The notes under the pieces: model-generated
The model's input: only the letters and a program-made list of their open reading frames with translations
What the model was told of the DNA's origin: nothing
Databases searched by the model: none
Shown: positions 21,350 through 59,200 of the stretch, one piece after another
Layout: the number at the start of each line of letters is the position of its first letter
Numbering within the stretch: the stretch's first letter is position 1
Source of the DNA: a virus
Length of the DNA: 64,000 nucleotides
Strand: one strand, 5' to 3'
Virus record (IMG/VR): IMGVR_UViG_3300031521_000030
Span: 33,129-97,128 of that record
Program-made: the position numbers and the translations under genes

Positions 21350-22297
21350 ATGACCGCCAAACAACTCGCTCCCTACCTCGACCGGGTTAGCAAGGTGGAA
21401 CTCCCGCCTACAACGTGCGGTTGTGCCCATTGCATGAAGGCGGCCAAGCAACCCGGTGGGGAAACCGTCCCCAAGGATGACCATTTCATCAAGGAGGAGC
21501 TTGCCCTTGCCGCCTTATTGCTGGCCTTGTGGGAAGCCGCTGTGGCTTCGACGGGCATTGAAGCGACCATCAAGGCTGCCGGGGCTACGCGCAACGTCAA
21601 CGTGATTGACACCACATTGGAAAACGCCGACGAGGACATGGCCAAGGCAACCTTCACCGATGAGGGTAAAAAGGAATCGGAGGATACCCTCCACAAGTCC
21701 TTTATGGTTGGCTTCCTATTGGCCGGGGCCGCTGCCGCTGCTGCCGCTCGCATGGCCGCCTCCATTAAGCGCACCCTCTTTGGCTACAACTCTCAGGTCG
21801 GCTATTGGACCAACCATTACTTCGCCCGCATCGCGCACCCGGCTCTTATGGAGGCCGTGCTTGCCGATGGGGTTAGCATCACCGGCACAAATGATTTGGA
21901 GGCCGTGCTAGAGGCGGTCATGGCGAGGGTTATCAAAGGCACCGAGGTTTATTGGCGCATCGTGGCCAACCAAACAATGAGCCGGGCGCACCATTATGGC
22001 ATCCTTCGCGGGGCGCAAGAGCAAGGGAAGCTGGGCTACCGCCTTGTGGCCGTTATTGATCTTCGCACCACCGACCTTTGCCGAGGGTTAGACGGGAAGG
22101 AGTTTTGGGTTGCCGATGCCATTGAGCATCTGGAACGGGTTGCAGAAACCGACCCCGCCGACATCGGCAAGGTTGCCCCATGGGTCAAGTGGGATGATGT
22201 AAAGGGCAAGTCGAACGCTGAGTTGTCATCCTTGGGGGTGCTTTGCCCTCCCTTCCATAGTTTTTGTCGGACGACGCTTGTAGCGTTCTCGACTTGA
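21350..22297 (+). CDS. minor head/head morphogenesis protein (SPP1 gp7/Mu gpF-like)
   Basis: AVIDLRTTDLCRGLDGK and PPFHSFCRT motifs. Confidence 0.85.
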   Translation: MTAKQLAPYLDRVSKVELPPTTCGCAHCMKAAKQPGGETVPKDDHFIKEELALAALLLALWEAAVASTGIEATIKAAGATRNVNVIDTTLENADEDMAKATFTDEGKKESEDTLHKSFMVGFLLAGAAAAAAARMAASIKRTLFGYNSQVGYWTNHYFARIAHPALMEAVLADGVSITGTNDLEAVLEAVMARVIKGTEVYWRIVANQTMSRAHHYGILRGAQEQGKLGYRLVAVIDLRTTDLCRGLDGKEFWVADAIEHLERVAETDPADIGKVAPWVKWDDVKGKSNAELSSLGVLCPPFHSFCRTTLVAFST

Positions 22298-22329
22298 CAA
22301 CATGGATGGGGTAGGGCATTATTTGCCGC

Positions 22330-23013
22330 ATGTTCAAACTACCCCTTCGCCGTAGGAAAAAGCTCTGTGGAAGACACTCCCTTGTTGATTTGGCTGATTT
22401 GGGTATAATCCTCAATACGGCTACAAATTGGGCTCTGTCTGACCATGGTTACGCCGTGGCCACAATAGGGACCCGCATGCTTTACCTGCACCGTCTATTG
22501 ATGGGGGACATCGTTGAGGGAAAACAGGTTGACCACATCAATGGGGACAAGCTGGACAACCGCCGGGAGAATCTTCGGGTATGCACGGCAAGGGAAAACC
22601 AAGCCAACACGGCCAAGCAAGCCCGCCCAACCTACTCAAAGTTCAAGGGGGTTTGCCAATCGGCGGGCCATTGGCGGGCATATATTGCAACATCGGATAA
22701 GCAGACCCACCTTGGCAGCTTTGCAACCGAAGGGGAGGCGGCCTATGCCTACAACCTTGCTGCCATAGAACGCTTCGGAGCATTTGCAAAATTAAACGAT
22801 GTTCCCGAGGTTCCTCTCAACCGCCTCGACAATAGGCAACCGGGGGCAACCGGCTTCAAAGGGGTAAAGGCACGCACAAATGGGACGTTCATTGCGCGTG
22901 CTAAAGTTAAGGGCAAGGAGGTTCATATTGGGACATTCCCAACCGCAGAGGGGGCAAGCAGAGCCCGCGCCCGCTACATTGGCCGGACAACATTGGTCCC
23001 CTTCACAACCTAA
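22330..23013 (+). CDS. HNH homing endonuclease with two AP2 domains
   Basis: LHRLLM...VDHINGDKLDNRRENLR; SKFKGV..WRA...HLGSF...AA.AYN; own promoter TTGACA-N17-CATTAT at 22294-22322. Confidence 0.9.
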   Translation: MFKLPLRRRKKLCGRHSLVDLADLGIILNTATNWALSDHGYAVATIGTRMLYLHRLLMGDIVEGKQVDHINGDKLDNRRENLRVCTARENQANTAKQARPTYSKFKGVCQSAGHWRAYIATSDKQTHLGSFATEGEAAYAYNLAAIERFGAFAKLNDVPEVPLNRLDNRQPGATGFKGVKARTNGTFIARAKVKGKEVHIGTFPTAEGASRARARYIGRTTLVPFTT

Positions 23014-23016
23014 TCT

Positions 23017-23032
23017 CTGCAACAAGTTGCAG
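23017..23032. repeat. 16-bp palindrome copy 10
   Basis: CTGCAACAAGTTGCAG, intergenic. Confidence 0.9.
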
Positions 23033-23074
23033 TTTTGACTTGCCGTGGATTGTGACCATGAGATGAGTCCGTCC

Positions 23075-23608
23075 ATGTTCCGTGTTTGCAAAACCGACGA
23101 CGACCAGCAGATTGCCCCCATCGTGGGGCACCCCAATTATTTTGTGGGCTCTGATGGTCGCGTCTATTCCTGTGCCCCACTGAATGGCCGGGGAGCACCT
23201 CTCCCCTTCTCAAGCAAACGAGAGCTACTCATCCAGCACACCCCCAAGGGTTATTGCACCATAATGGTTGACCGGAAGACTGTGGCGGTCCATTCCCTTG
23301 TTCTTAACCACTTCGTTGGGTCCCCTAAAGAGGGCCAACAATGCCGCCACTTGAATGGCAACAAGGACGATAATGCCATGGGGAATCTTGCATGGGGCTC
23401 CGGGCTGGATCAGCACAATGACCGCGTGCGGCATGGGACAGCACTCATGGGAGTTAGGCACCCCCAAGCAGTTCTGGACCAGATCAAAGTTTGCCTTGTT
23501 CGTCGCCTTCGTGCTCGGAAGTGGTCCCTTCGGGAAATTGCAAAGGCCCTTGGGGTAAGCACTACTCCTATTCGCCATGTTTTCAACGGGGGGTATGCCC
23601 ATGTTTAA
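23075..23608 (+). CDS. NUMOD4-HNH homing endonuclease carrying the original protease N-terminus
   Basis: YFVGSDGRVYS; VHSLVLNHFVG...CRHLNGNKDDN...NLAWG; C-terminal HTH. Confidence 0.88.
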   Translation: MFRVCKTDDDQQIAPIVGHPNYFVGSDGRVYSCAPLNGRGAPLPFSSKRELLIQHTPKGYCTIMVDRKTVAVHSLVLNHFVGSPKEGQQCRHLNGNKDDNAMGNLAWGSGLDQHNDRVRHGTALMGVRHPQAVLDQIKVCLVRRLRARKWSLREIAKALGVSTTPIRHVFNGGYAHV

Positions 23609-24158
23609 GGTCTGCAAAATGGATGACGATCAGCAAATCGTCGAAGGCGAAGTCTATGCCCCCAATACTCTCGACACCCATGGCGAGATGATGACGGCGG
23701 ATGCGGTGGAGACTATTTGCCACCGCTTCATGCAAATCCACTCCCTCAAGGAGACGATTGATACGCAGCACAACAATCTTCCCGCCGAATGCTACCCCAT
23801 TGAATCCTTCATTGCCCGCAAAGGCGACCCGGACTATACCGAGGGCGCATGGGTGCTGGCCGTTAAGGTAGAGGACCCAACTTTGTGGGCCTCCGTTAAA
23901 AAGGGGGAACTCAATGGCTTCTCCTTCGAGGCATACGTGAGCAAGCAGCAAGCGATTGTCGAGTTGCAGGTTTTCCCCCAGAGCATAGGGGAAACGGAGG
24001 AGGCCGAGGGCCATGCTCACTTCTTCATTGCCGAGTTGAATGCCGATGGGAAAGTTGTTTCCGGGCGCACAAGCGAGGCCGCCGGACACTCCCACATGAT
24101 AACCAAGGGCACCGCCACGTTGGAAAGTGCTGGACATGCCCATCGTTTTGTCGTCTAA
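23601..24158 (+). CDS. prohead protease (XkdF-like)
   Basis: GEVYAP..LDTHGE, IDTQH, IESFIA, GAWVL, GELNGFSFE. Confidence 0.88.
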   Translation: MFKVCKMDDDQQIVEGEVYAPNTLDTHGEMMTADAVETICHRFMQIHSLKETIDTQHNNLPAECYPIESFIARKGDPDYTEGAWVLAVKVEDPTLWASVKKGELNGFSFEAYVSKQQAIVELQVFPQSIGETEEAEGHAHFFIAELNADGKVVSGRTSEAAGHSHMITKGTATLESAGHAHRFVV

Positions 24159-24165
24159 CAAGATT

Positions 24166-25626
24166 ATGACTCGCAACCCCATCACCGTCCAAAAGGTCGT
24201 CACCCTTCTATCCGACGCGCATCCAACTTTCGTCTCTCTTGTTGGGCATGGGGCTAATCAGACCCCTTTCAAGTCCGTCAAGGTAGCCGAGCTTCCACAA
24301 ACTCAACCCATTGCAGACACCACTATGAGCAAACCCGCCGAACCCGTTACCAAGGGCGCAGTCGGGGCACCGCCAGCCGGAACCGAGATCAATAAGATCG
24401 TGTTCGCGGGTGAGCAGTTCCCGACCGATGCCGCCGTCACTACCTACCTTACCGCCAAGGGTTATTCCAACTTCGCCGTCGAGGCCGTGGATAGCAGCTT
24501 CGTGGTAAAGGCCATGGACGAAAACGCATTTGAATCCATCACGCCAATTGCGGCTACGGATGCGGGTGTTACCTTTTTTGTCGGTAAACTGGCCGCCGGG
24601 GCCGATCCCATTGCCACAGCCGTTATTGCCGCCCCCGTGGTTGCAACCAAGGCCGAGGTTCCCGTTGTCGTTGTCGCCCGCGAGCGCACGAAGGTTAGCA
24701 AGGCCGAGGTTCGCCGCAACCAGTTCAAGGTTACCAAAGCCGACGAAACCCCGGACCAACTCGTCCAGAAGTATTGCGACTATTATTGCTGCTGCGGGCC
24801 GGAGGTTGGGGAGCTAACGCTTGCCGACGCCATCGCCGATGTCAATTGCGGTCTGCCAGTTGGGTATTGGGATGTCAATGATGCCTTCCGCCAAGCCCTC
24901 CGCAACCGCATCCTCACCGGGGACGTTGCTGGCATTGCTGCCCTTGCAACTCAATTTGGTGAAATACTTGTCAAACTCTGCAACATCTGTTCCACTACCA
25001 CCATGAAATCCGAAGACAACCAAGCCGCTATCGACGCACTCCTCCCGAGCCGCAAGGACTTCGGAACGCAGGTGCCCAAAGTTGTAGCCATCCCCGCCGG
25101 GACAACTGACCCAATCATTGCGCAGCCCGGCACCATCCCGGCAACCCCCGGCACGATTGCCCTGCCAACCGGCGGCAACACCCTGCCCGTTATTAGCCAA
25201 CCCGGAACCATTCCGGCGGTTGTAGCTGGCGCGGTTGTAGTCCCCGGCGGTGCGGGCTCCCCGGCGGAACCCTTGGCCCAACCCGGAACTCTTCCCGCCG
25301 TGCCCGGTGCGGTAACTTTGCCAACCGGCACCGTGCCCGTTGTGCCCTCCGACCTTGGCTCCCTAGCCACGGCGATGACCACTTTGCAGAATACGCTGAA
25401 CACCCTCATCCAAGGGCAAACATCCCTCGCAACCAAAAGCGACATTTCGGAAGTTTCCGAGAAGGTCACCAAGGCAGAGGGCCGCTTGACCGTGATTGAA
25501 GAGGTCCGGCAGATTCGCAAGAGCGCGGACTCCGACGACGCTACCGTCAACGGGGGCGCTGGCAGCCCTGCGGGGGAAGCCCCGAAGTTGACCAAGACTC
25601 AGAAAAACATTCTTGGCATCCAGTAA
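24166..25626 (+). CDS. probable scaffold protein with QPGT(I/L)PA repeats
   Basis: Lies between protease and MCP; FVSLV..GANQTPF N-terminal motif; low complexity. Confidence 0.7.
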   Translation: MTRNPITVQKVVTLLSDAHPTFVSLVGHGANQTPFKSVKVAELPQTQPIADTTMSKPAEPVTKGAVGAPPAGTEINKIVFAGEQFPTDAAVTTYLTAKGYSNFAVEAVDSSFVVKAMDENAFESITPIAATDAGVTFFVGKLAAGADPIATAVIAAPVVATKAEVPVVVVARERTKVSKAEVRRNQFKVTKADETPDQLVQKYCDYYCCCGPEVGELTLADAIADVNCGLPVGYWDVNDAFRQALRNRILTGDVAGIAALATQFGEILVKLCNICSTTTMKSEDNQAAIDALLPSRKDFGTQVPKVVAIPAGTTDPIIAQPGTIPATPGTIALPTGGNTLPVISQPGTIPAVVAGAVVVPGGAGSPAEPLAQPGTLPAVPGAVTLPTGTVPVVPSDLGSLATAMTTLQNTLNTLIQGQTSLATKSDISEVSEKVTKAEGRLTVIEEVRQIRKSADSDDATVNGGAGSPAGEAPKLTKTQKNILGIQ

Positions 25627-25695
25627 GGCGAACCCAAAGGAAAACCAAAACCCTCGCAAGAGGTAACGCAAACCAAAACTAACCCAGCAAATAAT

Positions 25696-26613
25696 ATGTC
25701 TCAGGAACTCATTCAACGTGCGGATTTGGTCTTGGCGAACCTGCAAACCAACGGCGGTATCCTTAACCCGGAACAAGCCGACCGTTTCATTCAGGTCCTC
25801 GTCGATGAACCCACCATCCTCAATGTCGCTCGCACCGTCACCATGGCGGGGCCAACGATGGAACTCAACAAGATCGGCTTCGGTTCGCGCATCATGCGTG
25901 CTGCCGTTGAAAACACCCGCCTTGCGGCTGCTGATCGCGTTAAGCCAACCACAAGCAAGGTTTCCCTCGCCACGAAGGAAGTCATCGCTGAAATCCTTCT
26001 GCCTTACGCGGTGTTGGAAGACAACATCGAAAAGGGCAATCTGGAAAACACCATCCTCACCCTGATCGCTAAGCGTGCGGCCACCGACTTCGAAGAGTTG
26101 GTTATCCTCGGCGACCAGTCGCTTGCAGGGACCGACCCTTACCTTGGGTTGCTGGACGGCGTTGTGAAGCGCATCACGGCCCATGAGGTCGATGCACTCA
26201 CCACCGGCATTTCGGCCAACACCTTCAACAACGCCCTCAAGGCGCTGCCGAAGAAATACCGCCGGAACAAAAACCTGCTCAAGTTCCTCTTGGGTTCGGA
26301 CGCCGAACAGGATTGGCGCAACAAGATCGCTGCCCGGCAGACCATTCTTGGTGATAGCACCTTGGTTGGCTCCGCTCCAAGCACGGTCCACGGCGTTGGC
26401 ATTCTGCCCGCAGCCCTGATGCCTGATGGCGTTGGTATCCTTACCAACCCGCAGAACATCATCATCGGTATCCAGCGGAATTTCCGCTTGGAGTCCTTCC
26501 GCATGATCGGCGAGCGCCAGTATCAAATCGTTCTGACCGCCCGCGTGGATGTCCAGATCGAGGAGACGGATGCCGCCGTCAAGATCGTCAACTTCGAGGA
26601 CATCGAAGCGTAA
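25696..26613 (+). CDS. major capsid protein (HK97 fold, XkdG-like)
   Basis: NGGILNPEQADRFI, LEDNIEK, DFEELVILGD, ILTNPQN, EETDAAV. Confidence 0.92.
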   Translation: MSQELIQRADLVLANLQTNGGILNPEQADRFIQVLVDEPTILNVARTVTMAGPTMELNKIGFGSRIMRAAVENTRLAAADRVKPTTSKVSLATKEVIAEILLPYAVLEDNIEKGNLENTILTLIAKRAATDFEELVILGDQSLAGTDPYLGLLDGVVKRITAHEVDALTTGISANTFNNALKALPKKYRRNKNLLKFLLGSDAEQDWRNKIAARQTILGDSTLVGSAPSTVHGVGILPAALMPDGVGILTNPQNIIIGIQRNFRLESFRMIGERQYQIVLTARVDVQIEETDAAVKIVNFEDIEA

Positions 26614-26698
26614 GCCATAGGGCAAGACCACTCATGCCCCTTCCCTTTAACCGGGGGAGGGGCCTTCAACCAAAGCAGCACGCAACTCATTTATTTTT

Positions 26699-26983
26699 AT
26701 GGCCGAAGACATTGCATCCACCGACGAAACCCCCGCCCCCAAAGTGGCTGGGCTCACCGCAACCCTCGTCTACGGGGAAACCTACTACCTTGGTAACAAA
26801 CGCTTCGAGGTCAAAAAGCCCGTATCCGTTACCGAAGCAGAGGCCGCAGCCCTCAAGCCGAAGGTTGTCTCGCGCACCATCATTGATGGGGACAAGCGGG
26901 ACTCCATTGACACCCCTCGCTTCAAAATCGAAGGGTCTGCCCCGGCGGCCCCTCGCGCACGCGCCCCTCGCGCAACCGCCTAA
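26699..26983 (+). CDS. YqbF-like capsid-adjacent protein
   Basis: LVYGETYY...RFE...PVSVTE. Confidence 0.55.
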   Translation: MAEDIASTDETPAPKVAGLTATLVYGETYYLGNKRFEVKKPVSVTEAEAAALKPKVVSRTIIDGDKRDSIDTPRFKIEGSAPAAPRARAPRATA

Positions 26984-26986
26984 TCG

Positions 26987-27002
26987 CTGCAACTTGTTGC
27001 AC
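26987..27002. repeat. 16-bp palindrome copy 11
   Basis: CTGCAACTTGTTGCAC, intergenic. Confidence 0.9.
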
Positions 27003-27014
27003 CACTCATAACCT

Positions 27015-27704
27015 ATGCGTTCCCGTATTATTACCCCACCGGCCTCCGAGCCCATAACGCTCGATGAGGCGAAGGAGTATTTGCGGGTTACGCATGGGCA
27101 TGAGGACGCGACCATTACCCGGCAAATCCGGGCGGCCCGCGTGGCTTGCGAGCACCAAGCGCGTATGTCCTTTGTCACCCAAACGTGGGAGACTTCCTAT
27201 ACCATTCCCAAAGCGGTTATCCGCCCTCTATTGATGCCCTCAAGCATCTCCGACCCCGATGGTGTTTTGGGTGGTTTGCGGGTTATGCACAAGCCCGCTG
27301 CATCCGTTGTGAGCGTCTCGGCACTATGCCGGGGCAAGGCCCCAACGGTTGTCCCGGACACCGAGTATGTCCTTGACCTTGGGACGCAGAGGATCGAATG
27401 GGCTAACCGGCAAAACCTCTGCCAAGGTTATTTGAATGGCAACGACATTGTGCTTGCCCAATATGTTACGGGCTATTCGGTGGAGGACTTGAACCTCATC
27501 CACCCAAGCATCGTCGAGGCCATCTATATCGTTCTCAGCAACTTGTATGAGAACAAGGGCCTAAGCAGCCAAGTCTTGCCTCCAACGGCAATCGAACTTC
27601 TGGCCCCTTATTGGACCTCACCAACTTTCGACAAAACCCCAACCCCGGAGCAACCCTCTTATGAAATTTGGTCGCAAGGTCGTTGGTTTGACCAGTCGCA
27701 ATAG
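27015..27704 (+). CDS. head-tail connector (HK97 gp6-like)
   Basis: EPITLDEAKEYLRV...ED..I...I.AAR; AI...LYEN. Confidence 0.85.
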   Translation: MRSRIITPPASEPITLDEAKEYLRVTHGHEDATITRQIRAARVACEHQARMSFVTQTWETSYTIPKAVIRPLLMPSSISDPDGVLGGLRVMHKPAASVVSVSALCRGKAPTVVPDTEYVLDLGTQRIEWANRQNLCQGYLNGNDIVLAQYVTGYSVEDLNLIHPSIVEAIYIVLSNLYENKGLSSQVLPPTAIELLAPYWTSPTFDKTPTPEQPSYEIWSQGRWFDQSQ

Positions 27705-28155
27705 TTACGAGAATGTTTCCGCTGGGGAACTTCGTAACCCAATCGTGCTACTCAAGTCCGAGCGCACGCCCGACGATAGCACGGCATTCATCCAAACCCT
27801 CACGCCCTACCACCCCGCATGGGCCAAGATCGTGGAGGCCGAGGAGTCCCGAGATAAAGGGGAGAATGAGGACAACAAAACCGCATTCAACTTCATCATT
27901 CGCAACCCCCGGTTCGGGGTAGACTCCGGCTCCTTTGTGAGTTGGGGCGACCGGCTTTTCCGGGTTAGCAAGACCAAGCAGTTGGGCCGGGAGTTGGAGT
28001 TCCTCCGCATCAAGGCATTCGAGCATGGTAACACATCCGGCCCGGCCTTCGGGCTTGGGGCAATCCAACACCCGGACGGTTCCCTTATTGCCCAAACCGA
28101 GCCTACCAATGATGGCTCAACCACTTCACCTTTCTGGCCGCCGGAGGAGGACTAA
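27661..28155 (+). CDS. head-closure/adaptor protein (SPP1 gp16-like)
   Basis: AGELRNPIVL...WAKI...FIIR; start uncertain. Confidence 0.7.
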   Translation: MKFGRKVVGLTSRNSYENVSAGELRNPIVLLKSERTPDDSTAFIQTLTPYHPAWAKIVEAEESRDKGENEDNKTAFNFIIRNPRFGVDSGSFVSWGDRLFRVSKTKQLGRELEFLRIKAFEHGNTSGPAFGLGAIQHPDGSLIAQTEPTNDGSTTSPFWPPEED

Positions 28156-28158
28156 GCC

Positions 28159-28611
28159 ATGGCCGCCGGGGACATTGCAACGCTTGATGAATCCCGCTAC
28201 GTGCGGGCTGGATTCTTGCGGGCCTACCTCCTTTCCGAAATGCGGCGGGTAACCCGGTCTAATGCTGAGCATATCCGCAACCACATGAAGGCGAACATGC
28301 AAGCCCCCAAGCATGGCCACACTTACATCCGGGCGGGCGGGCGCAAGCATGTCGCTTCGGCACCGGGGGAAGCCCCCGCAATAGACACCGGGAACCTTTT
28401 CAACTCATTGAAGATTGAATATGGAAGCGGGGCCGGATACCCTACGGGGGCCTTTGCGCATATTGGGACTTCCACAACCGGCTACGCGGGGTTCCTCGAA
28501 GGGGGCACAAGCAAGATGGCAAAGAGGCCGTTCGCTGACCCTGCGCGGGCTGCATTCCAAGCTCGGTTCATCAATGACATCCGGCGGGCCATTAGCCACA
28601 CACTTTCCTAA
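28159..28611 (+). CDS. neck protein (HK97 gp10-like)
   Basis: ASAPGEAPAIDTGNL..S; YAGFLEGGTSKMAKRPF. Confidence 0.85.
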   Translation: MAAGDIATLDESRYVRAGFLRAYLLSEMRRVTRSNAEHIRNHMKANMQAPKHGHTYIRAGGRKHVASAPGEAPAIDTGNLFNSLKIEYGSGAGYPTGAFAHIGTSTTGYAGFLEGGTSKMAKRPFADPARAAFQARFINDIRRAISHTLS

Positions 28612-28613
28612 CC

Positions 28614-30406: not shown

Positions 30407-30410
30407 CATT

Positions 30411-41183: not shown

Positions 41184-41199
41184 CTGCAACAAGTTGCAC
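41184..41199. repeat. 16-bp palindrome copy 15
   Basis: CTGCAACAAGTTGCAC, intergenic. Confidence 0.9.
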
Positions 41200-41203: not shown

Positions 41204-41701
41204 ATGGCCCAGCAAATAGCGCAAACCGAAAAGCAATATCTCACATCCGAACGGGATGTTGTGGACCGCTCCAAGAAATGCACTTGCTGTAAAGTATGGA
41301 AGCCTCGAACTTCGTTCTGCAAAAATAGGGCGAAGTTTGATGGGCTCTCCGGGGAGTGCCGTGAGTGTAGCAAGGCAAGGGTGTCTGCATGGCAAAAAGA
41401 TAATCCCGCGCTAGTCACCGCAAGGAGCATCAAGTGGAATAAGGAGCACCCAGAACGTAGGAAAAGCACACGCCTACATTCCCGTTATGAAATTACCTTA
41501 GACCAGTTCAACTGGCTACTGGCTTCTCAAGGTGGTGGGTGTGCTATTTGCTCCCAAGTGGCCCCTAAAATGGTGGTAGACCATGACCACATCACAGAAA
41601 AGGTGCGCGGCATTTTGTGTCACTCTTGCAACATTGCCATCGGACACTTTCGGGATAATACTCTGCTTTTAACTAAAGCAATTGCCTACCTACAAAAATG
41701 A
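41204..41701 (+). CDS. endonuclease VII-type homing endonuclease carrying the original tail-X N-terminus
   Basis: QGGGCAIC, VDHDH.T.KVRGILCHSCN..IGHFRD; N-terminal Zn finger. Confidence 0.9.
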   Translation: MAQQIAQTEKQYLTSERDVVDRSKKCTCCKVWKPRTSFCKNRAKFDGLSGECRECSKARVSAWQKDNPALVTARSIKWNKEHPERRKSTRLHSRYEITLDQFNWLLASQGGGCAICSQVAPKMVVDHDHITEKVRGILCHSCNIAIGHFRDNTLLLTKAIAYLQK

Positions 41702-42420
41702 CCATTATTGCCCAAACTGAGAAGCAGTATCTTACCAGCGAACGGGATGTCATAGATAGGGTGTGCTGGGACTTTTATGGATCAACGCAAGGGACCGCCG
41801 AGGCCGTTTATAGGCGCAACACATTCCTGTCCCGCTATCCCGCCGTCTTGCCCCCCGGTTTGGTTATCACCCTGCCGGTGGTGAGCTTGACGGCCCTTCG
41901 CCAAGTGCGGGAGTTGTGGGATTATGGCACCGTCAAGAAGTCGGATGCGGGCCGGGTTGCAGCGACGGTTGACAACCGCCTATCCGCCGCACAAAGCGCG
42001 TTGAACCATTACCGGGCAACCAAGTATTCTCTGCCCGCCTCCGAGGTTGTGGACGATGTAAAGGAACTGACCGAGGCCGAATGGTTGGGCGTCTATTACA
42101 AGACGGCCTCCGGCACTTGGAAACAGGCCCGCATGCACAAGAGCAACCTTCAATTCGAGGGCGATGCGGATAACCTTTCCGTGCGGGTCCAATCCTTGGA
42201 GGAGAGCCTAACCCGGTTCAACCTCATGGAGTTTGTCCCCGCCGGGGCCGCCCGGTTGGAGGTCCAAGATAGCGTCGTTCGCATGGTGTTCGACCGCTCC
42301 AAATTTGCAATGTCCGATGCGGAACTTGAGCAGGTCCTCCGGCCAATGTTCCCGCAATACACGCTTGAAACCTGCCAAGGCGACGTTCAGGTTATTGGCC
42401 CGATTCCCCGCCGGTTCTAA
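41698..42420 (+). CDS. tail protein X (P2 gpX-like) with C-terminal extension
   Basis: D.IDRVCWDFYG...EAV...N.....LPPGLVITLP...ELWD. Confidence 0.8.
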   Translation: MTIIAQTEKQYLTSERDVIDRVCWDFYGSTQGTAEAVYRRNTFLSRYPAVLPPGLVITLPVVSLTALRQVRELWDYGTVKKSDAGRVAATVDNRLSAAQSALNHYRATKYSLPASEVVDDVKELTEAEWLGVYYKTASGTWKQARMHKSNLQFEGDADNLSVRVQSLEESLTRFNLMEFVPAGAARLEVQDSVVRMVFDRSKFAMSDAELEQVLRPMFPQYTLETCQGDVQVIGPIPRRF

Positions 42421-51465: not shown

Positions 51466-51470
51466 ACTTT

Positions 51471-51962: not shown

Positions 51963-51978
51963 CTGCAACAAGTTGCAC
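51963..51978. repeat. 16-bp palindrome copy 18
   Basis: CTGCAACAAGTTGCAC, intergenic. Confidence 0.9.
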
Positions 51979-51983
51979 AAAGC

Positions 51984-53126
51984 ATGAAGCCAACATTCAA
52001 AATCACGGTAAGCAGCCCGGAAGGCGGGAACACCCAAGATATTACGGGGGCCATTGAAGAACGGCTCATTGAGGTATCCGTCCATGACCAGATTGGCATG
52101 CGGAACGACCGCCTGACCATCCATATTGATGACCGGGTTACTTTGGACGGGGGCCTCATTACCCTACCCCAAAAGGGATTCATATTTGATGTGGAGATGG
52201 GCTACATCCCGTCCGCCGGGCATGATAATCCCTATGACGGGACCGAATCCCTTGGCACCTTCGTCCTTGATGAGATGGAGTTGGAGAAGAGTGAGCGGGG
52301 CCGGACGGTTGCCATCACCGGGCATGGTTTGGACATGACCGCAAATAAGCTCAAGGAGCAGCACACCACGGCTTTTATGTTCACAACGCTTGGCAAGGTT
52401 GTGGATGCCGTTTGCAAGAAGTCAGGCATGGATGCCATTGTGGACCTCGGGCGCAAGGAGGTTCCCATTGCTCGGGCATACCAGATTTGTGAGAGTGACA
52501 TCTTTTTCCTTGTGCGGTTGGGCAAGCAATATGGTTGCACGGTCAAGGTCCAAGAGGGCAAGGTTTACTTCGCCCCGCAGGACACCATTGATGAGTTGCA
52601 GGACTTGGTTAAGGAGGACATCACCATTGATGAGACGGATACCACCGGCTTCCATTATTTGACCCAAGGGGCGGGGAAATTCTCCTCGGTCACCGCCCGA
52701 TACTTTGACTATGATTCGGCAGATGGCAGCGGCTATTCCACGGTCACCGTTGATGCCCCAACCGAAGAGGGGGATAAAAGCGATGGGCCGGTTGCCGAGT
52801 TGCAACGCCTCTACGCCAATTCAACGGAGGCAAGCGAGGCAGCGCAGACCCGCATTGATATTCTTGCCCGTTCCTTGGATACTTTCTCCTTCAACTGCTA
52901 TGGCAACCCCCTCCTCCTATCCGGGGGGACGTTGGACCTAACGGGTTTTCGCCCGGAGATTCCAACCGAGTGGAAAATTGTCAAAGTTGTGCATAGTTTT
53001 ACCTCCGGGGGATACCTCTGCGATGTGGACTGTGAATTGCCTAAATCGGGATACAAACATCGTAAAAGGACCAAAAAAGTTCGACTTGGGACCAAGCCCC
53101 TGTCTACCATACCCCGAGCCAAGTAA
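51984..53126 (+). CDS. baseplate hub (P2 gpD-like)
   Basis: DITG.I.ERLI...D.L.I.IDD, Q..ESD..FL.RL, GFRPEI..W....H. Confidence 0.88.
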   Translation: MKPTFKITVSSPEGGNTQDITGAIEERLIEVSVHDQIGMRNDRLTIHIDDRVTLDGGLITLPQKGFIFDVEMGYIPSAGHDNPYDGTESLGTFVLDEMELEKSERGRTVAITGHGLDMTANKLKEQHTTAFMFTTLGKVVDAVCKKSGMDAIVDLGRKEVPIARAYQICESDIFFLVRLGKQYGCTVKVQEGKVYFAPQDTIDELQDLVKEDITIDETDTTGFHYLTQGAGKFSSVTARYFDYDSADGSGYSTVTVDAPTEEGDKSDGPVAELQRLYANSTEASEAAQTRIDILARSLDTFSFNCYGNPLLLSGGTLDLTGFRPEIPTEWKIVKVVHSFTSGGYLCDVDCELPKSGYKHRKRTKKVRLGTKPLSTIPRAK

Positions 53127-53132
53127 TCCAAT

Positions 53133-53732
53133 ATGAGCGCACCACGGACTACACCTACAAAGCAACACCAATCCATGGACAAACAAGAAACCCCGACAAC
53201 GCAGCGCGTGGCCGTGCTAGAGCGCCAGTTTCAGGATTTTGCGGCAAACGTAACCACGTTTATCCAAAGCCAGCAAGCCGAGAACCAACGCCTTTACAAT
53301 GCCATCGGGGATAGCGGCAAGCAGTTGTTCAGCGCATTTGAAAAGTTACAGGGGGAGTTGTCCTCGCGGGGAAAGGTAACCGGGCAGTTTGTCCTTTCCC
53401 TGATTGCGGTTGGGGTTTCATTGTTGGTTGGCACATGTGGGTTTGTCCGGGCGTATGTGGCGGGGCAAGTTGAGCCGGTCAAAGCGGAGATGGTTCAAAA
53501 CTTCACCCACCTCATGCAGATAACGGAGGGGAACCTCCTCAAGATCAAAGAGGTTGAAGTTGCGGGCACCACCAACCGGCTGGCCATAACGGCCCACACG
53601 GCAGCCGATGAAGCCACAAAGCAATCCTCCGAGCGGGAGCTTACAAGGCTCCGCAAGGATGTGGATGATGCCCGCGATTATGAGATTTCATCCCTGCGGG
53701 CCTTCCGGGACAAAACCATCAAAACCCCATGA
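53133..53732 (+). CDS. single-TM coiled-coil protein of the lysis cassette
   Basis: Central hydrophobic segment FVLSLIAVGVSLLVGTCGFV. Confidence 0.6.
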   Translation: MSAPRTTPTKQHQSMDKQETPTTQRVAVLERQFQDFAANVTTFIQSQQAENQRLYNAIGDSGKQLFSAFEKLQGELSSRGKVTGQFVLSLIAVGVSLLVGTCGFVRAYVAGQVEPVKAEMVQNFTHLMQITEGNLLKIKEVEVAGTTNRLAITAHTAADEATKQSSERELTRLRKDVDDARDYEISSLRAFRDKTIKTP

Positions 53733-54313
53733 AGAACCTTTTAGTTTTGGGCCTTGCCCTAACCCTTCTATCGGGCTGTGCCACTCGCCAGCCTTTGACC
53801 TCTGCCCGGCAAGTTGTTTCTATTGCCCCGCAGACCGCCCCGGTTAAACAAGCCGTGGCCAAAACCCGCGCAACGGTTGCCAAGGCTGCCACGGCTGCCC
53901 AGCAAGCCACGCAACGGGCCGATGAGGTTCAGACCATGGCCCAGCATATTGCCACCGTGGGGGTCATTGCCAATAGCGAGGAAGCCACCGCCATGGTTGC
54001 CAAGGCCGCCGAGGTTAAAGTCCAGTTATCCGATGTTACCGGGCAACTGCAACAAGCGCAGGTGGATATTGCCGAGAGTGAATCCCAAGTTGCCGTCCTA
54101 ACCTCCCAAGTCGATCAGCAAAGCAGGGAGCTTGTCCAAAGTGTGGCTGCCATCAACCAGTCCGTGGCCAATAGGGCGGCAGTTGAAAAGACCGCCATCC
54201 TTGAGGCCGATGCCGCCACACGTTGGCGCAAGGTTGCCACCGGGCTTGGCGTCCTATCCTTAACCCTTGGCGCGGGGCTTTACATTGCCATGAAATCCAA
54301 GCTACCCTTTTAG
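53729..54313 (+). CDS. putative unimolecular spanin
   Basis: Lipobox LLSG-C at the N-terminus, heptad body, C-terminal TM VATGLGVLSLTLGAGLYIAM. Confidence 0.6.
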   Translation: MKNLLVLGLALTLLSGCATRQPLTSARQVVSIAPQTAPVKQAVAKTRATVAKAATAAQQATQRADEVQTMAQHIATVGVIANSEEATAMVAKAAEVKVQLSDVTGQLQQAQVDIAESESQVAVLTSQVDQQSRELVQSVAAINQSVANRAAVEKTAILEADAATRWRKVATGLGVLSLTLGAGLYIAMKSKLPF

Positions 54314-54316
54314 CTT

Positions 54317-54640
54317 ATGAATATTCCAATCCTATCGTTCCTCAAACGCTACTGGCTGCTCTTGGTCATGTTGGCGCTCGCCCTTGTCCTTTGCCTAACC
54401 GACCTCCCGTTCAAACTTGCGGGCATGTTCGTGTTCCTCCCCGCTCGCGGGTTGGGGGCAATCATCGTCGCCCTGCTCATTCGGCATCTGTTCTTCCGGC
54501 AAACGCTGGAACTCGATGTTGATAACGGGGATTTCGTTACATGGTGGAAAGCATTGGCCCCAAGGGACCGCGTGTTTGCCAACCTCGCCATCATGGCCGT
54601 TCTATTCCTTGGCCTCTGCCATATAGCCGCATCCCTTTGA
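54317..54640 (+). CDS. putative holin (3 TM)
   Basis: Three hydrophobic segments; immediately before the endolysin. Confidence 0.6.
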   Translation: MNIPILSFLKRYWLLLVMLALALVLCLTDLPFKLAGMFVFLPARGLGAIIVALLIRHLFFRQTLELDVDNGDFVTWWKALAPRDRVFANLAIMAVLFLGLCHIAASL

Positions 54641-54641
54641 T

Positions 54642-55307
54642 ATGCACAACCCCACCCGCAATACCCGGCTCGCCTTTATGACCGTCCTGCTTGGGGTGCT
54701 TATCCTCCTCACCGCCTTCGTTGGCCACGCGGGCGTCCCGGACCAAGCAGCCCGGTGGGATTCGGCCAAGGTTCGCCATGAGAACCAGTCCAGCATAGAC
54801 AAGTCCCTTTGGCTTTATGGGCGCATCCATGGCCGGTATGAGGCCATTACCGCCCTGCGTAGCAATGGTGCCCCGGCGATTGTCCTCTTCTGCCTCCACC
54901 AAAGGGAGTCGGATGGGAGCTTTGCCCGGCATCCACATGAGGGGAGCCCTTTGATGCACCGCACCCGAGACGTTCCGAAGGGCCGGTTGCCAAGCCCGAA
55001 CCCCCCCTATTCATGGGAGCAATCCGCCGAGGATGCCTACTATGTCTGCGACCACTTGGATTTGGTGCCATGGCACAAGCTCCCGGCAGCCCTGCAAGCC
55101 ATAGAGGCGTTCAATGGCACCGGCTACCAACGCTACCACCCGGACGTGCCCTCGCCCTACCTATGGGCCGGGACAACGGTTTACCTCCGGGGCAAGTATG
55201 TTGAGGATGGCCGGTTTGATCGCTTCGCGGTTGATAAGCAAGTTGGTGCCGCCGCCATCTTGAAACGGGCCGCCGAGCGGGGCATTGCCCTGCCTTGGGA
55301 CCCATAA
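54642..55307 (+). CDS. endolysin, lysozyme-like (COG5526-type) with N-terminal signal/TM
   Basis: HQRES, G.PL..RT..VPKGR, WEQSA.DA, E.FNG.GY, PSPYLWAGT..Y..GKYV.DG. Confidence 0.85.
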   Translation: MHNPTRNTRLAFMTVLLGVLILLTAFVGHAGVPDQAARWDSAKVRHENQSSIDKSLWLYGRIHGRYEAITALRSNGAPAIVLFCLHQRESDGSFARHPHEGSPLMHRTRDVPKGRLPSPNPPYSWEQSAEDAYYVCDHLDLVPWHKLPAALQAIEAFNGTGYQRYHPDVPSPYLWAGTTVYLRGKYVEDGRFDRFAVDKQVGAAAILKRAAERGIALPWDP

Positions 55308-55380
55308 CTTTCCTACGGGGACTAGGAACCTGTGCCGGGGGCTTCGCTACCCTCCCGGCATGGGGCTCCCTTTGAGTTCG

Positions 55381-55396
55381 CTGCAACTTGTTGCAC
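55381..55396. repeat. 16-bp palindrome copy 19
   Basis: CTGCAACTTGTTGCAC, intergenic. Confidence 0.9.
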
Positions 55397-55421
55397 CGGA
55401 CTCTTTTTTTGTGCAAAGTCC

Positions 55422-55450
55422 TTGCCAATTATTCGGTTAAACCCCATATT
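55422..55450 (+). promoter_or_regulatory. promoter/operator copy upstream of the AAA ATPase
   Basis: TTGCCAATTATTCGGTTAA, N17, CATATT. Confidence 0.7.
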
Positions 55451-55486
55451 GAAACCCGCCCAAAGATAAAAGGGGCAACAACACAA

Positions 55487-57166
55487 ATGAGAACCATTGC
55501 AGCACAGCCAACAGCACAGTCCAACTCCACACTTCCACGAAGCAAAGGGCGGTTTATTTCCAGCTTTGACATTCTGGCCAGCGCGGGCGTTGGGGTAGTT
55601 TTAACCCATGCAAGGGAGCCACACCGCGTATGCGAGGCCCTCCGCGAATGGGCGTTTATGAAGGAGCGGTCTTACCGCGAATGGGATTGCGTCCGGGGCT
55701 GGTCGCTCTATACTGACAACCCCAATGACAAACCCAAGTCGGAGAAGATCGTGGAAGCCACATCTGCCCTGCTCCGCATCAATGATGTTCCGGGGGAGGG
55801 GAAAGAGGCGTGGCGCGAGGGTGTTTTTGTGATGCAGTATCCCCATTGGGTGCTTCCCAAGTCGCCGGTTTTCATCCAATGCCTCAAATCCTATGTTCGG
55901 GATTTCAGCGAAACCAAGCAGCGGCTCGTTTTGGTTGTGCCGGAGGGGTTCCAACTCCCGAAGGAGCTTGAGAATGACATCGTAATGATGGACTTGGACC
56001 TCCCAAGCCGCACCGAACTTTCCGACATCTACCGCCGGATTGCCGACGCATCCTTTGGCGATAACCAAATGCAAAAAGAGCTTTTCCCTCCGGGCGAAGT
56101 TGAGAGCATTATTTCCATCGGCTCCGGTATGACCGAGATGGAGTTTGAGACGGCGGTGGGTCGGGCCATGGTTTCCAATAAGGCAACCTTCCCCAACATC
56201 CCCCTCCAAGATTTCTGCCGGGTTGTCCGGGAGAGCAAGACGGAGGTTGTTCGCCGCTCCGAGGTTTTGGAGTTGATGAGCGCGGGCCGGATGGAAGATG
56301 TTGGTGGTTTGGACATCCTCAAAGGTTGGGTGGCCAAGCGGCGGGTTTGCTTTTCCAAGGACGCCAAGGCGTTCGGCGTTGATAAGCCAAAGGGCATCGC
56401 GCTGATTGGGCCTCCCGGAACCGGCAAGAGTGTTTCAGCAAAGGCCATTGCCGCTCTATTGGGCATCCCGCTCATTCGTTTTGACGTTGGCAAGGTCTTC
56501 AATTCCTTGGTCGGCGAATCGGAAAGCCGCGTGCGCTCGGCCCTTAAACTTATGGAAGCGATGAGCCCATGCGTGGCCTTCGTGGATGAGGTTGACAAGG
56601 CGGGCATTGATCCTCGCAAGGGCGGGGGTGATAGCGGGGTTGGTCAGCGCGTTATGGGCGCTCTATTGACCTTCATGCAAGAAAGCCAAGCGGACATCTT
56701 TTGGATTATGACTGCCAACCGGGTGGACTCCCTGCCCCCCGAGATGCTCCGCAAGGGCCGCCTCGACGAAGTGTTTGCGGTCTTGCCCCCTAACAACATC
56801 GAACGGCTGGAAGTGCTCCGCATCCACCTCCGCAACCGCAAGCAGGACCCGGATGCCATAACGGACCTCGCATTGGCCGTGGATGCCAGCAACGGGTTTG
56901 TGAGCGCCGAGTTGGAGGCAGCGGTTAAGGAGGCCATCGTGGATTCTTACCATGCCAATTGTTCGGCGGTGACCGGGGCCGCTATTGCCACGCACCTCTT
57001 TAACATGAAGCCCCTAAGCGTTGCCTTCCCCGAGGATTTCGAGAAGATGCGGGCATGGGCCGAGGCTAATGCCAAACCGGCAAGCAGCCCGAGCGCCGAG
57101 CAAGCATCCCGCCCCCGCGAGCGCAGCCGGGCCGGGACGGGTGGCCGCAAGGTTGAACTCAACTAA
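55487..57166 (+). CDS. Ycf46-like AAA+ ATPase
   Basis: VGGLDILKGW, GPPGTGKS, LVGESES, FVDEVDK, TANRV.SLPPE.LRKGRLDE; degenerate first AAA domain. Confidence 0.9.
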   Translation: MRTIAAQPTAQSNSTLPRSKGRFISSFDILASAGVGVVLTHAREPHRVCEALREWAFMKERSYREWDCVRGWSLYTDNPNDKPKSEKIVEATSALLRINDVPGEGKEAWREGVFVMQYPHWVLPKSPVFIQCLKSYVRDFSETKQRLVLVVPEGFQLPKELENDIVMMDLDLPSRTELSDIYRRIADASFGDNQMQKELFPPGEVESIISIGSGMTEMEFETAVGRAMVSNKATFPNIPLQDFCRVVRESKTEVVRRSEVLELMSAGRMEDVGGLDILKGWVAKRRVCFSKDAKAFGVDKPKGIALIGPPGTGKSVSAKAIAALLGIPLIRFDVGKVFNSLVGESESRVRSALKLMEAMSPCVAFVDEVDKAGIDPRKGGGDSGVGQRVMGALLTFMQESQADIFWIMTANRVDSLPPEMLRKGRLDEVFAVLPPNNIERLEVLRIHLRNRKQDPDAITDLALAVDASNGFVSAELEAAVKEAIVDSYHANCSAVTGAAIATHLFNMKPLSVAFPEDFEKMRAWAEANAKPASSPSAEQASRPRERSRAGTGGRKVELN

Positions 57167-57178
57167 GGAGACATTACC

Positions 57179-57820
57179 ATGGGCGTTGCAATCAAAGTCA
57201 CAACCGGAAATGAGACGGTCGCACAAGCCACCGCCAAGGTTCACGTTTTCCACAGCCCCAACCGCGAGGAATGGGGCATGAAGGAAACTTACCTCTCGGC
57301 GGTTGCCCGGACCAACCCGGAGATCGTCCGCAAGATTGGGAGCCCCACGCAAATGGACGCCGTGGTTGGCTACATCTCGGAGATCGGGGGCAAGTGGTCT
57401 ACCCAAACCTTTGAGATGCGGGATGGGGAAATCCTCAAGGTATTTGCATCCAAAAAGGAGCGGTGGAACGAGGTCATCAAGACGGCTTGTGTGTTCCTCC
57501 AAATCCGCCCGGATGCCGCCTTCCGGGTTATGCGGGTCAAGCTGCTCAATATCAGCGGTCGGACCCGGATGCCCTTTGCGGAGATCGCTGGCCGGTTTGA
57601 CATTATCTCCCTCAACGATGCCATCGGTTTGGGTTGCACGGTCATGCCACAATTCTACGGCCTATTTACCCCCGCCATGGCAACCGGCCTCTTTGAGTTT
57701 GAGGTCCGGGAACCGGAGATCAAAGCAAAGGTCATCGTGGAGCAAAAAATCATCCACTCCGAAACCGGGGAGCGCCGAGTGTTCCAAGCCCCGCGCAAGG
57801 GCCGATCAATCGAAATGTAG
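57179..57820 (+). CDS. hypothetical protein, ends PRKGRSIEM
   Basis: AAGGAG SD; coupled to the AAA gene. Confidence 0.7.
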   Translation: MGVAIKVTTGNETVAQATAKVHVFHSPNREEWGMKETYLSAVARTNPEIVRKIGSPTQMDAVVGYISEIGGKWSTQTFEMRDGEILKVFASKKERWNEVIKTACVFLQIRPDAAFRVMRVKLLNISGRTRMPFAEIAGRFDIISLNDAIGLGCTVMPQFYGLFTPAMATGLFEFEVREPEIKAKVIVEQKIIHSETGERRVFQAPRKGRSIEM

Positions 57821-57876
57821 TCCAACCCGGCGGGGTTCAATCCCCCGCCAAAAAAACTCTCATTTGTCTGTTGCCT

Positions 57877-57895
57877 TTAACCGAACCATTGGCAA
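57877..57895 (-). promoter_or_regulatory. inverted operator copy
   Basis: Reverse complement reads TTGCCAATGGTTCGGTTAA. Confidence 0.65.
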
Positions 57896-57950
57896 TCATA
57901 CCCACGTTAAAACGATTTTCAAACCTTAAAAGAAAGAAGAGGATACTACC

Positions 57951-58457
57951 ATCAGCCACACCACTTCCGTAAAGACGGTCCCAATCAAAAGCCGCTCCGC
58001 ATTGCAAGCGGCGGTCAATGAACTGCAACTCAAGGGGGTCAAATGCTCCCTCCTAACGGATGCCAAACCCCGCATGTATTACAAGGACCAGATGCAGCGG
58101 CATCTTGGCCAAGCCAGTGAGGTTTGCCCGCTGGTCCTCCACCTCGATGATTGCGCTTATGATGTTGCTTTCATCCAAGCCGAGGATGGGGCACTAACTC
58201 CGGTCTTCGACGATTGGGTGCCAAGCTCCGGCGGCAAGGCCATCAAAGCGGTGCTTGGGGCCGCCTACAAAGGCAAGGTCGAGCATTGGTCCGGCAACCG
58301 GGCCGAAACCGAGCAAACCCTCCACAGCATTGGACGGCTCTTGCAGGGTTATAGCAAATACACGGCCATTGAGTCGGCCACCGCCGATGGCTTTATCATT
58401 GAAAGCTGCACCGAAGACGAGTTGGGCAACATCCAACTTCGCCTCACCAACTGCTAG
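57951..58457 (+). CDS. DUF1257-like protein with probable ATC start
   Basis: (I/M)SHTTSVKT..I.S..AL..A...L; YDVAF...DG....FDDW; L.Q.Y; G.I.L. Confidence 0.7.
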   Translation: MSHTTSVKTVPIKSRSALQAAVNELQLKGVKCSLLTDAKPRMYYKDQMQRHLGQASEVCPLVLHLDDCAYDVAFIQAEDGALTPVFDDWVPSSGGKAIKAVLGAAYKGKVEHWSGNRAETEQTLHSIGRLLQGYSKYTAIESATADGFIIESCTEDELGNIQLRLTNC

Positions 58458-58468
58458 GAGGAAACATT

Positions 58469-58516
58469 ATGAACGACCGAGCAATTCTCATTACGATTGA
58501 CAAGGCAACACCATGA
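58469..58516 (+). pseudogene. displaced original 5' end of the DUF2997 gene (MNDRAILITIDKATP*)
   Basis: AGGAGG SD; matches the N-terminus of 58997; ATGA-coupled to the HNH gene. Confidence 0.7.
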
Positions 58517-58992
58517 AGACCCCGGCGAACCTTGCACAGTCCTTTTGGCCAAGGGTGGCCACCGAGGCCCCTGATAAATGTTGGGCTTGGCTCGGCCAGT
58601 TAAATGATCGTGGGTATGGCGTTACCCAAGTTGGTGGTCGCCTTGGCCTCAACACCCGAGCAAGCCGCATTGGCTTTGCCTTATGGCATGGGGTTACCCT
58701 TGAAACCATAGAGGGCCTTGAGGTTTGCCACACCTGTGACAACCCAAAATGCGTAAACCCTAACCACCTATTCATTGGCACCCACGCGGATAATGTTGCT
58801 GATATGGTAGCAAAAGGAAGGCAAGCACGGGGTATCAAGAATGGTTCAGCTAAACTTACTTGGCCCCTTGCCCGAGAGATTCGGGCGTTGCACAAAACGG
58901 GGGTATATAAACAAAAGCAGTTGTGCCAACGCTTTGGTATAACGCAAGGAACCCTTAACCCACTACTCAACCAAAAAACTTGGAAGGAATAA
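58513..58992 (+). CDS. HNH homing endonuclease
   Basis: CWAWLG....GYG, VCHTCDNPKCVNPNHLFIGTHADNVADM..KGR. Confidence 0.9.
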   Translation: MKTPANLAQSFWPRVATEAPDKCWAWLGQLNDRGYGVTQVGGRLGLNTRASRIGFALWHGVTLETIEGLEVCHTCDNPKCVNPNHLFIGTHADNVADMVAKGRQARGIKNGSAKLTWPLAREIRALHKTGVYKQKQLCQRFGITQGTLNPLLNQKTWKE

Positions 58993-58996
58993 ATAT

Positions 58997-59200
58997 ATGC
59001 AAGATCAGCGTTCTATACTCGTAACCATAGATAGTGTCGGAAGACCGAAAATTGAGGCCATTGGCTTTACCGGGGGCACCTGCAAGGAGGCAACCAAGAA
59101 CCTGCTGGCCGCCTTTGGCGGGGCCGGGGAAACGGTTGAAAAGCCCGAGATGGGCTATATTGAAATCGAAGGCGAGCAGCACGAACATTTGACGATGTAA
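58997..59200 (+). CDS. DUF2997 family protein
   Basis: I.VTID..G...IEAIGFTG..CKEAT..L. Confidence 0.75.
   Translation: MQDQRSILVTIDSVGRPKIEAIGFTGGTCKEATKNLLAAFGGAGETVEKPEMGYIEIEGEQHEHLTM

Follow-up and report, generated by a model that had tools for sequence, protein, structure and literature searches.

How can a nuclease gene come to lie inside the conserved end of another gene, with neither an intron nor an intein to remove it, and still leave that gene whole? The question is raised by the final 64 kb of a 97,128-bp phage genome (IMG/VR record IMGVR_UViG_3300031521_000030, bases 33129-97128; this whole stretch is called the window here, and positions are those of the window unless the genome is named). 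Each of four nuclease genes in it sits within the outermost 9-22 codons, at the start or the end, of a different conserved phage gene, and at all four sites the host gene is kept whole by a second, differently spelled copy of its end on the far side of the insert. Our reading, to which we give a probability of roughly 0.8, is that each case is a free-standing homing endonuclease cassette consisting of a nuclease open reading frame (ORF) and the corresponding gene end of a diverged donor phage. An earlier note on this DNA had proposed that such nucleases invade gene ends and supply a recoded replacement, and our analysis supports this interpretation in its architecture and its probable origin.

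The duplications were located by a peptide-repeat scan together with direct reading, with Pfam used for the nuclease and host-gene families (Table 1), and all four were found where they had been claimed, beside the HNH-AP2, NUMOD4-HNH, Endonuclease_7 and HNH genes. Pfam places HNH_3 on the ORFs at 22330, 23045 and 58513 and Endonuclease_7 on that at 41204, full-length homologues of the 58513 protein are annotated as HNH endonucleases, and by eye the catalytic motifs are intact (DHINGD..N, HLNGN..N, DHDH..CN and CHTCDN..H..N). Below, "stub" denotes the copy attached to the nuclease, and "restoring copy" the one by which the host gene is completed.

The first case concerns the 3' end of the MuF-like gene, which finishes ...FCRTTLVAFST and a stop, the restoring copy being RTTLVAFST plus stop at 22268-22297; its C-terminal motif PPFHSFCRTTL aligns with the MuF ends of relatives. 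The HNH-AP2 gene starts 32 nucleotides (nt) past MuF and ends ...IGRTTLVPFTT, its final nine codons and stop (RTTLVPFTT, 22984-23013) forming a copy of the MuF end in which 7/9 residues are identical and 11/30 nt differ. In the second case, the first 13 codons of the NUMOD4-HNH gene are a protease start (MFRVCKTDDDQQI, 23075-23113), a public gene call beginning at 23075, and the prohead protease itself restarts at 23601-23639 with the restoring copy, MFKVCKMDDDQQI. The two versions agree in 11/13 residues and differ in 11/39 nt. The TAA stop of this nuclease (23606-23608) arises from TTT AAG in codons 2-3 of the new protease copy, where the old copy reads TTC CGT.

In the third case, 22 codons from the start of the Tail-X gene (MAQQIAQTEKQYLTSERDVVDR, 41204-41269) are fused to a nuclease gene of the Endonuclease_7 family, and the restoring copy (MTIIAQTEKQYLTSERDVIDR, 41698-41760) begins with an ATG that overlaps the nuclease TGA as ATGA; here 17/18 residues are identical and 15/54 nt differ. 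The fourth case begins 11 nt past the stop of a DUF1257-like gene with a short DUF2997 stub, the TGA of which overlaps the HNH ATG at 58513, again as ATGA, and the DUF2997 gene restarts 4 nt past the HNH stop, reading MQDQRSILVTIDSVG, with MQDQRSILVTID (58997-59032) as the restoring copy. The stub is therefore read as part of the nuclease in cases 1-3 and is ATGA-coupled to it in case 4, so that the description of an old end fused or coupled to the nuclease, and a new copy completing the host gene, holds at 4/4 sites. At the three 5' sites the host restart lies 0-8 nt from the nuclease stop, either overlapping it or following it by 4 nt, and translation of these host genes probably depends on coupling.

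Table 1. Features of the window, by position (GC3, G+C content at third codon positions)
Feature	Position	Strand	Remarks
MuF-like head morphogenesis gene	21347..22297	+	Pfam Phage_Mu_F
HNH_3/AP2 homing endonuclease gene	22330..23013	+	Pfam HNH_3 E 3e-12; GC3 0.58
Island: old MuF end and stop, 61-nt spacer with palindrome 23018-23031, old protease start	22984..23113	+	
NUMOD4-HNH homing endonuclease gene	23075..23608	+	Pfam HNH_3 plus HTH
Prohead protease, XkdF type	23601..24158	+	Pfam Peptidase_S78_2 E 1e-23
Palindrome TGCAACAAGTTGCA	41185..41198		3 nt past upstream stop, 5 nt ahead of old Tail-X ATG
Endonuclease_7-family nuclease gene	41204..41701	+	Pfam Endonuclease_7 E 4e-22, residues 89-165; GC3 0.515
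Tail-X (LysM-like) domain tail gene	41698..42420	+	Pfam Phage_tail_X, residues 13-65
15-codon DUF2997 stub MNDRAILITIDKATP and stop	58469..58516	+	AGGAGG ribosome-binding site in front
HNH (His-Me finger) homing endonuclease gene	58513..58992	+	Pfam HNH_3, zf-His_Me_endon; GC3 0.50
DUF2997 gene	58997..59200	+	Pfam DUF2997, residues 7-51
Second repeated intergenic element	1187-1220, 2202-2235, 2934-2970, 5027-5055, 6923-6950, 9929-9960, 12223-12255		

Across the four pairs, 43 of the 51 aligned residues are identical and 8 differ, with nucleotide identities of 62-72% and longest identical runs of 3-12 nt. At identical residues with a degenerate codon, a different codon is used in 28 of 41 positions, against 23.5 +/- 3.1 expected if both copies were drawn independently from the codon usage of the genome. 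These counts bear out the claim that the two versions are nearly identical in protein and differ at many synonymous positions, and the synonymous sites are saturated; for scale, the proteases of this phage and of locus L004 (69% protein identity) differ at 47% of such codons. Saturated synonymous sites with only 8 residue differences are not what the free decay of a redundant copy would leave behind, and the pattern indicates that both copies evolved as functional ends of a gene in separate lineages, under protein constraint. Synonymous changes exceed random codon choice only slightly (z about 1.5), and while selection for extra recoding beyond saturation is possible, the "recoding" is more simply explained by a donor allele that had diverged, with selection as a filter, than by any active process.

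The repeated pieces match the host genes and are foreign to the nuclease families to which they are attached. Protease relatives start MFHRVCKTDDARQIV, MFRVCKIDADRQIV or MFKVKKVDNDRQI, MuF relatives finish with PPFHGLCRTTLELIAGY, PPLHPNCRSTIQFL and similar peptides directly before the stop, and DUF2997 proteins of the phages JP1 and RHph_I4 begin MKQQIKVHID and MMKQIKVTID. On the nuclease side, most of the best-listed Endonuclease_7 phage homologues of the 41204 protein align only from residue 23-26, an HNH-AP2 homologue (40% identity) in the MuF/protease gap of locus L012 ends ...ARANFLPPT without an RTTLVPFTT tail, and the NUMOD4-HNH paralogue of the genome begins five residues ahead of the GH motif. 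Since ORFs 23075 and 41204 have no other early methionine, the next lying not before about residue 73 (counted from the 23045 start) or 122, both must use the borrowed start. T7-like phages have Endonuclease_7 homologues between gp13 and gp14, where the annotation treats them as intergenic genes in their own right. The small Cys-rich ORF 8358-8540 (CGTCKGNKPLADF...CKGC) resembles, by eye, the zinc-finger-like N-terminal region of the 41204 nuclease; it could be what is left of a nuclease, or else a DNA-binding module.

Composition gives a first indication of which copy is old. The six nuclease genes of the genome have a GC3 of 0.50-0.58, compared with 0.67 +/- 0.05 for 103 other ORFs, and contain 9-19% rare codons, compared with 6% overall. 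Rare codons make up 10/55 of the restoring copies and 3/59 of the stubs (Fisher p 0.04). Within the host genes they gather at the restored end, with 8 in the first 16 codons and 0 in the other 47 of the DUF2997 gene (p 2e-5), 6 in the first 40 and 5 in the other 200 of the Tail-X gene (p 0.004), and 3 in the last 20 and 9 in the other 296 of the MuF gene (p 0.03). The atypical tract thus reaches 16-40 codons into the DUF2997 and Tail-X genes. AT-rich codons (ATA, AGG, GTA, ACT, TCT, AGT), which the new copies had been said to favor, are present in three of the four restoring copies, with the protease as the exception.

The surroundings of the stubs point in the same direction. A palindrome, TGCAAC(AA/TT)GTTGCA, occurs in 27 mostly intergenic copies in the genome, which in the window span 172-60518 (for example also 51964-51977); it is about 40 times as frequent as expected by chance, with 47 strand-wise matches at up to two mismatches against 0.66 expected. 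It lies 1-6 nt past a stop at 8 of the 27 copies, including 23018-23031, and often 5-50 nt ahead of the next start. An operator, a processing signal or a termination signal are possibilities for its function. The three 5' stubs each follow their native upstream spacer, which carries the palindrome in cases 2 and 3, the case 4 stub keeps its ribosome-binding site, and behind the 3' stub of case 1 come the native stop and a palindrome-bearing spacer. The palindrome at 23018-23031 is 5 nt past the old MuF stop and 43 nt ahead of the old protease ATG. Based on this placement beside both the old stop and the old start, 22984-23113 represents a contiguous native island between two nuclease bodies, and if 22268-22983 and 23114-23639 were excised, MuF and the protease would again be separated by 61 nt alone, much as in relatives. 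The assignment of old and new copies is therefore supported by the composition of the nucleases, the composition of the copies, the extent of the atypical tracts and the native context. A second repeated intergenic element, GTTGCCAAT...GGTTAAG.GTTAGGT, shows itself through identical translations in every reading frame and sometimes lies just 3' of the palindrome; located in the early-gene part of the genome, it looks promoter-like.

Relatives of the phage were also collected. Its genome has a G+C content of about 57%, the + strand holds every gene of the window, and the end of the genome repeats its start, with an identical 42-residue translation at both (window 63870-64000; genome 1-130), consistent with a phage genome that is terminally redundant or was assembled as a circle. 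The named phages nearest to it in protein similarity are Aeromonas HJ05, Stenotrophomonas DLP_3/DLP_5, Agrobacterium JP1, Rhizobium L338C/RHph_I4 and Rhodobacter RcZahn, to which the prohead protease is 40-50% identical. A DNA search of a phage collection returned two short matches only and no phage record alike at the DNA level, protein-pattern scans of viral contigs with single proteins gave 2 distant loci or none, and no full-length relative of the Tail-X gene was found in a set of 5.8 billion proteins. Profile scans of metagenomes, genomes and viral contigs yielded 119 related loci, 42 of which contain both MuF and the protease; protein identity in these relatives is at most 69%, and the closest, L004, is truncated at the protease start. 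In the public cluster, every member is either this phage itself or a nearly identical strain that carries its alleles, and variants differ by only a few residues.

In 21 of the 42 relatives with both genes MuF and the protease are uninterrupted, at a spacing of 50-163 nt, a range that includes the 61-nt spacer of the window; the other 21 hold some insert. The two genes abut in HJ05. Likewise, DUF2997 starts 10 or 54 nt after DUF1257 in JP1 and RHph_I4, with no nuclease between, and the JP1 spacer has GGAAAC in common with the 11-nt spacer before the DUF2997 stub of the window. One relative only (L012, which equals L111) carries an HNH-AP2 homologue in the MuF/protease gap, where it is cleanly intergenic. 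Nuclease presence is thus sporadic, the homologous sites of distant relatives lacking it at 3/4 junctions, and no comparator was found for the Tail-X junction. The earlier note had expected relatives to show an empty allele joining the old end directly to the gene body: the uninterrupted layout is seen at three of the four junctions, but the empty allele of this lineage itself was not found, and the comparators, 40-58% identical, show the ancestral architecture rather than that allele.

Inteins interrupt MuF in two relatives, with Hint_2 in L038 (20-1669) and Intein_splicing in L036 (3783-6749), and the junctions read PPPYHFR/C...THN/CRTDTIPL and PPFHPN/C...THN/CRCGIVFI, where slashes mark the intein borders, the C-extein is 8 residues long and a stop follows. 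These inteins directly precede the Cys of the conserved PPxHxxCR motif, and the duplication in the window starts one codon later (FC/RTTLV). The coincidence of inteins and a free-standing nuclease at the same MuF codons supports the MuF site as a nuclease target and as a homing hotspot. With half of the 42 relatives holding an insert, the MuF/protease junction is a general insertion hotspot. In other relatives a DUF6527 gene occupies this gap (L060:3503-3895, L076:3470-3883).

We next consider how often such repeats would be met by chance. From each of the 142 large ORFs of the genome the 40 N-terminal and 25 C-terminal residues were taken and compared with one another, with 9730 non-adjacent pairs serving as controls. 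Case 3 scores 87 and case 2 scores 62, above the best control pair (52), which consists of two paralogous nucleases. Case 1, with a score of 34, is equalled or beaten by 9/9730 control pairs, and case 4, with 32, by 56/9730, so that the latter is carried mainly by its position and by family homology. Because 7-of-9 residue matches are frequent in arbitrary frames (44 in the window), peptide identity alone is weak proof.

Other candidates and nuclease genes were set apart from the four cases. A fifth look-alike, 195-227/777-809 (KPKGRVIDMG and KPKGRIIDMS, each before a stop, around ORF 231-809), was rejected as a C-terminal tag rather than a nuclease-linked case: the tag, K/R-x-R-[VIL]-[IL]-D-M-[GS] and stop, closes three consecutive genes (33-1069) and is confined to them, the third ending RVRLLDMG (1037-1069), and no nuclease domain was found in the two tagged ORFs scanned, 231-809 and 809-1069. 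The ORFs ending at 227 and 809 have a Cys pattern in common and may be paralogues, and the gene 57179-57820, beside an AAA ATPase, ends in a similar RKGRSIEM before its stop (57794-57820). Also discarded was a sigma-70-like site at 22294-22322 ahead of HNH-AP2, one lone consensus match of a kind expected by chance. The genome has two more nuclease genes (window 63235-63807 and genome 11516-12037), neither with a duplicated gene end, and no flanking peptide repeats were found at four other distinct nuclease genes in the related loci that were fetched. The former two are HNH genes, paralogues of 58513 and 23075, and lie between genes; 63235-63807 directly precedes the UDG-like start of a gene that runs over the genome end.

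Several other explanations of the four junctions can be weighed against this evidence. That the resemblances are due to chance, or to a shared functional terminal peptide such as the C-terminal tag at 33-1069, gains something from the 44 random-frame matches and from the very existence of a genuine tag elsewhere in the genome; we nevertheless give it almost no credence, as cases 2 and 3 outscore all 9730 control pairs, 4/4 repeats are anchored at gene termini adjoining nucleases, and the peptides belong to the protease, Tail-X, DUF2997 and MuF folds, with no evident role in a nuclease. Removal of the nuclease genes by RNA or protein splicing, with the duplicated ends as an incidental feature, would be in keeping with the introns that do occur in phage structural genes and with the inteins of relatives at the same MuF codon. 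Yet no Rfam family reaches the gathering score in the 64-kb window, Pfam finds no Hint domain in the four nuclease ORFs, in cases 1 and 4 a stop codon, which excludes protein splicing, intervenes between the nuclease and its host gene, and the host genes are complete without splicing. The intron-free, intein-free layout that had been described thus stands, and splicing seems to us hardly credible as an explanation.

The direct repeats flanking an inserted gene are also reminiscent of a transposon, and could have formed by local duplication at insertion, through target-site duplication or slippage, and then diverged in place. Such an origin is very unlikely, given that the repeats vary in length from 27 to 66 nt at only 62-72% identity, that the four nuclease ORFs have no transposase domain and no terminal inverted repeats are present, and that 28 synonymous codon changes stand beside 8 residue changes, a ratio unexpected under free decay. 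Moreover, the synonymous sites are saturated though public strain variants of the phage differ by few residues. Finally, the roles of the copies might be reversed, the nuclease having entered an intergenic spacer with the gene end of a former host (the stub), in which case the host-completing copy would be the resident one. No close relative lacking the homing endonuclease gene was found that would prove the direction of events, the protease restoring copy has genome-typical codons, and the L012 homologue of HNH-AP2 is cleanly intergenic. This would, however, leave unexplained why it is the stubs that have genome-typical codons and the restoring copies that have nuclease-like ones, and why the stubs occupy native contexts, with palindromes at the old MuF stop and the old Tail-X start, a DUF2997 stub 11 nt past the DUF1257-like stop as in JP1, and an old MuF end, spacer and old protease start that are contiguous. 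We therefore regard a reversal of roles as improbable.

A cassette that brings in a donor gene end remains the preferred reading, and some observations count against it. The protease restoring copy is without atypical codons, and the rare-codon tracts as a whole are support rather than proof, because rare codons are in general more frequent at gene starts (11.7% in the first codons against 6% overall). No allele of this lineage lacking the homing endonuclease gene was found: protein identity to the comparators is just 40-58%, and the public variants, though nearly identical, have these alleles too. The design is not obligatory, since two of the six nuclease genes are without a duplication, and the Endonuclease_7 protein could also act as the junction resolvase of the phage.

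The proposed course of events would be as follows. The nuclease would cut the conserved end of its target gene, and repair from the donor genome would copy in both the nuclease gene and the donor gene end, making use of homology within the body of the gene, and 16-40 codons would be co-converted. On the opposite side the joint would be illegitimate, such that the resident end survives as the stub. Being near-saturated at synonymous sites, the imported end would no longer match the recognition site and would protect the genome from its own nuclease; it would also resemble the stub too little for the insert to be lost by recombination between the two. A nuclease at a 5' site would be expressed from the signals of its target, and translation of the target would be coupled to the nuclease ORF. 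Whether phage homing endonucleases commonly use such a splicing-free, spare-end design, combining immunity, a block on loss of the insert and, at 5' sites, a tie to expression, is more doubtful, and we put it forward only tentatively. If they do, expression of an essential host gene would be tied to keeping the nuclease at 5' sites, and what each such enzyme cleaves could be read off the DNA at the junction of stub and gene body.

For the cases at hand, the preferred reading implies that selfish nucleases can enter genes for essential phage proteins without an intron or intein, and it would explain both the odd N- or C-terminal extensions of annotated HNH genes and the mis-called starts of their neighbors. 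Each case marks a probable recognition site, made of stub plus gene body, and so offers new site-specific nucleases paired with candidate targets. The imported tracts of 16-40 codons, which extend past the duplication, suggest that these elements move pieces of structural genes between phages. At the PPxHxxCR motif of MuF, a free-standing nuclease here and inteins in relatives would allow two invasion strategies to be compared at one site.

Among known systems, the free-standing Seg and Mob endonucleases of T4-type phages carry out intronless homing, in which the allele lacking the endonuclease gene is cleaved and repaired with co-conversion of the flanks. Like them, the nuclease genes described here are free-standing and adjoin conserved genes; Seg and Mob genes, however, are reported to lie between genes or to divide a gene into two cistrons, with no duplication of a gene end. 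Another parallel is MobA with the 50-nt bypass insert of T4 gene 60, reported by Bonocora et al. in 2011, where a nuclease likewise travels with an adjacent change in its target; the target remains a working gene and is reportedly shielded from cleavage by that change. There the protection comes from an insert that the ribosome bypasses, whereas the present cases would use a duplicated, differently spelled end. Intein-borne homing endonucleases also target such conserved codons, as in the MuF genes of L036 and L038, but an intein is made as part of the host protein and then removed by splicing, while here stops and a spare end make splicing unnecessary.

The phage nucleases described in PMC10448857, PMC2248197 and PMC3706429 are intergenic or intronic and do not have the spare-end layout, and no description of duplicated gene ends around phage nucleases was found in the literature searched, which was covered in part. 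The earlier note's remark that alternative gene ends carried by homing endonucleases have precedent is confirmed by the closest system described so far, that of fungal mitochondria, in which mobile endonuclease ORFs (mORFs) form "gene hybrids" in atp6 of Allomyces macrogynus and in atp6, atp9, cox2 and nad3 of Glomus (PMC3630166). An mORF inserts together with a foreign C-terminus and displaces the native end behind it, the two ends being 91-100% identical in protein and 64-81% in DNA, and in Allomyces the native end is identical to that of a sister species lacking the endonuclease gene (PMC3630166). As in our phage, an endonuclease ORF lies between two copies of a gene end, conserved in protein and diverged in DNA, with several such cases in one genome. 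The mORF enzymes, however, are LAGLIDADG or GIY-YIG and affect C-termini only, whereas the phage enzymes are HNH/His-Me and Endonuclease_7, and 3/4 of the phage cases are at 5' ends, where the nuclease captures the start and the host gene restarts by overlap or close coupling. Relative to mORFs, the novelty of the present cases lies in the phage host, the other enzyme families and the capture of 5' ends.

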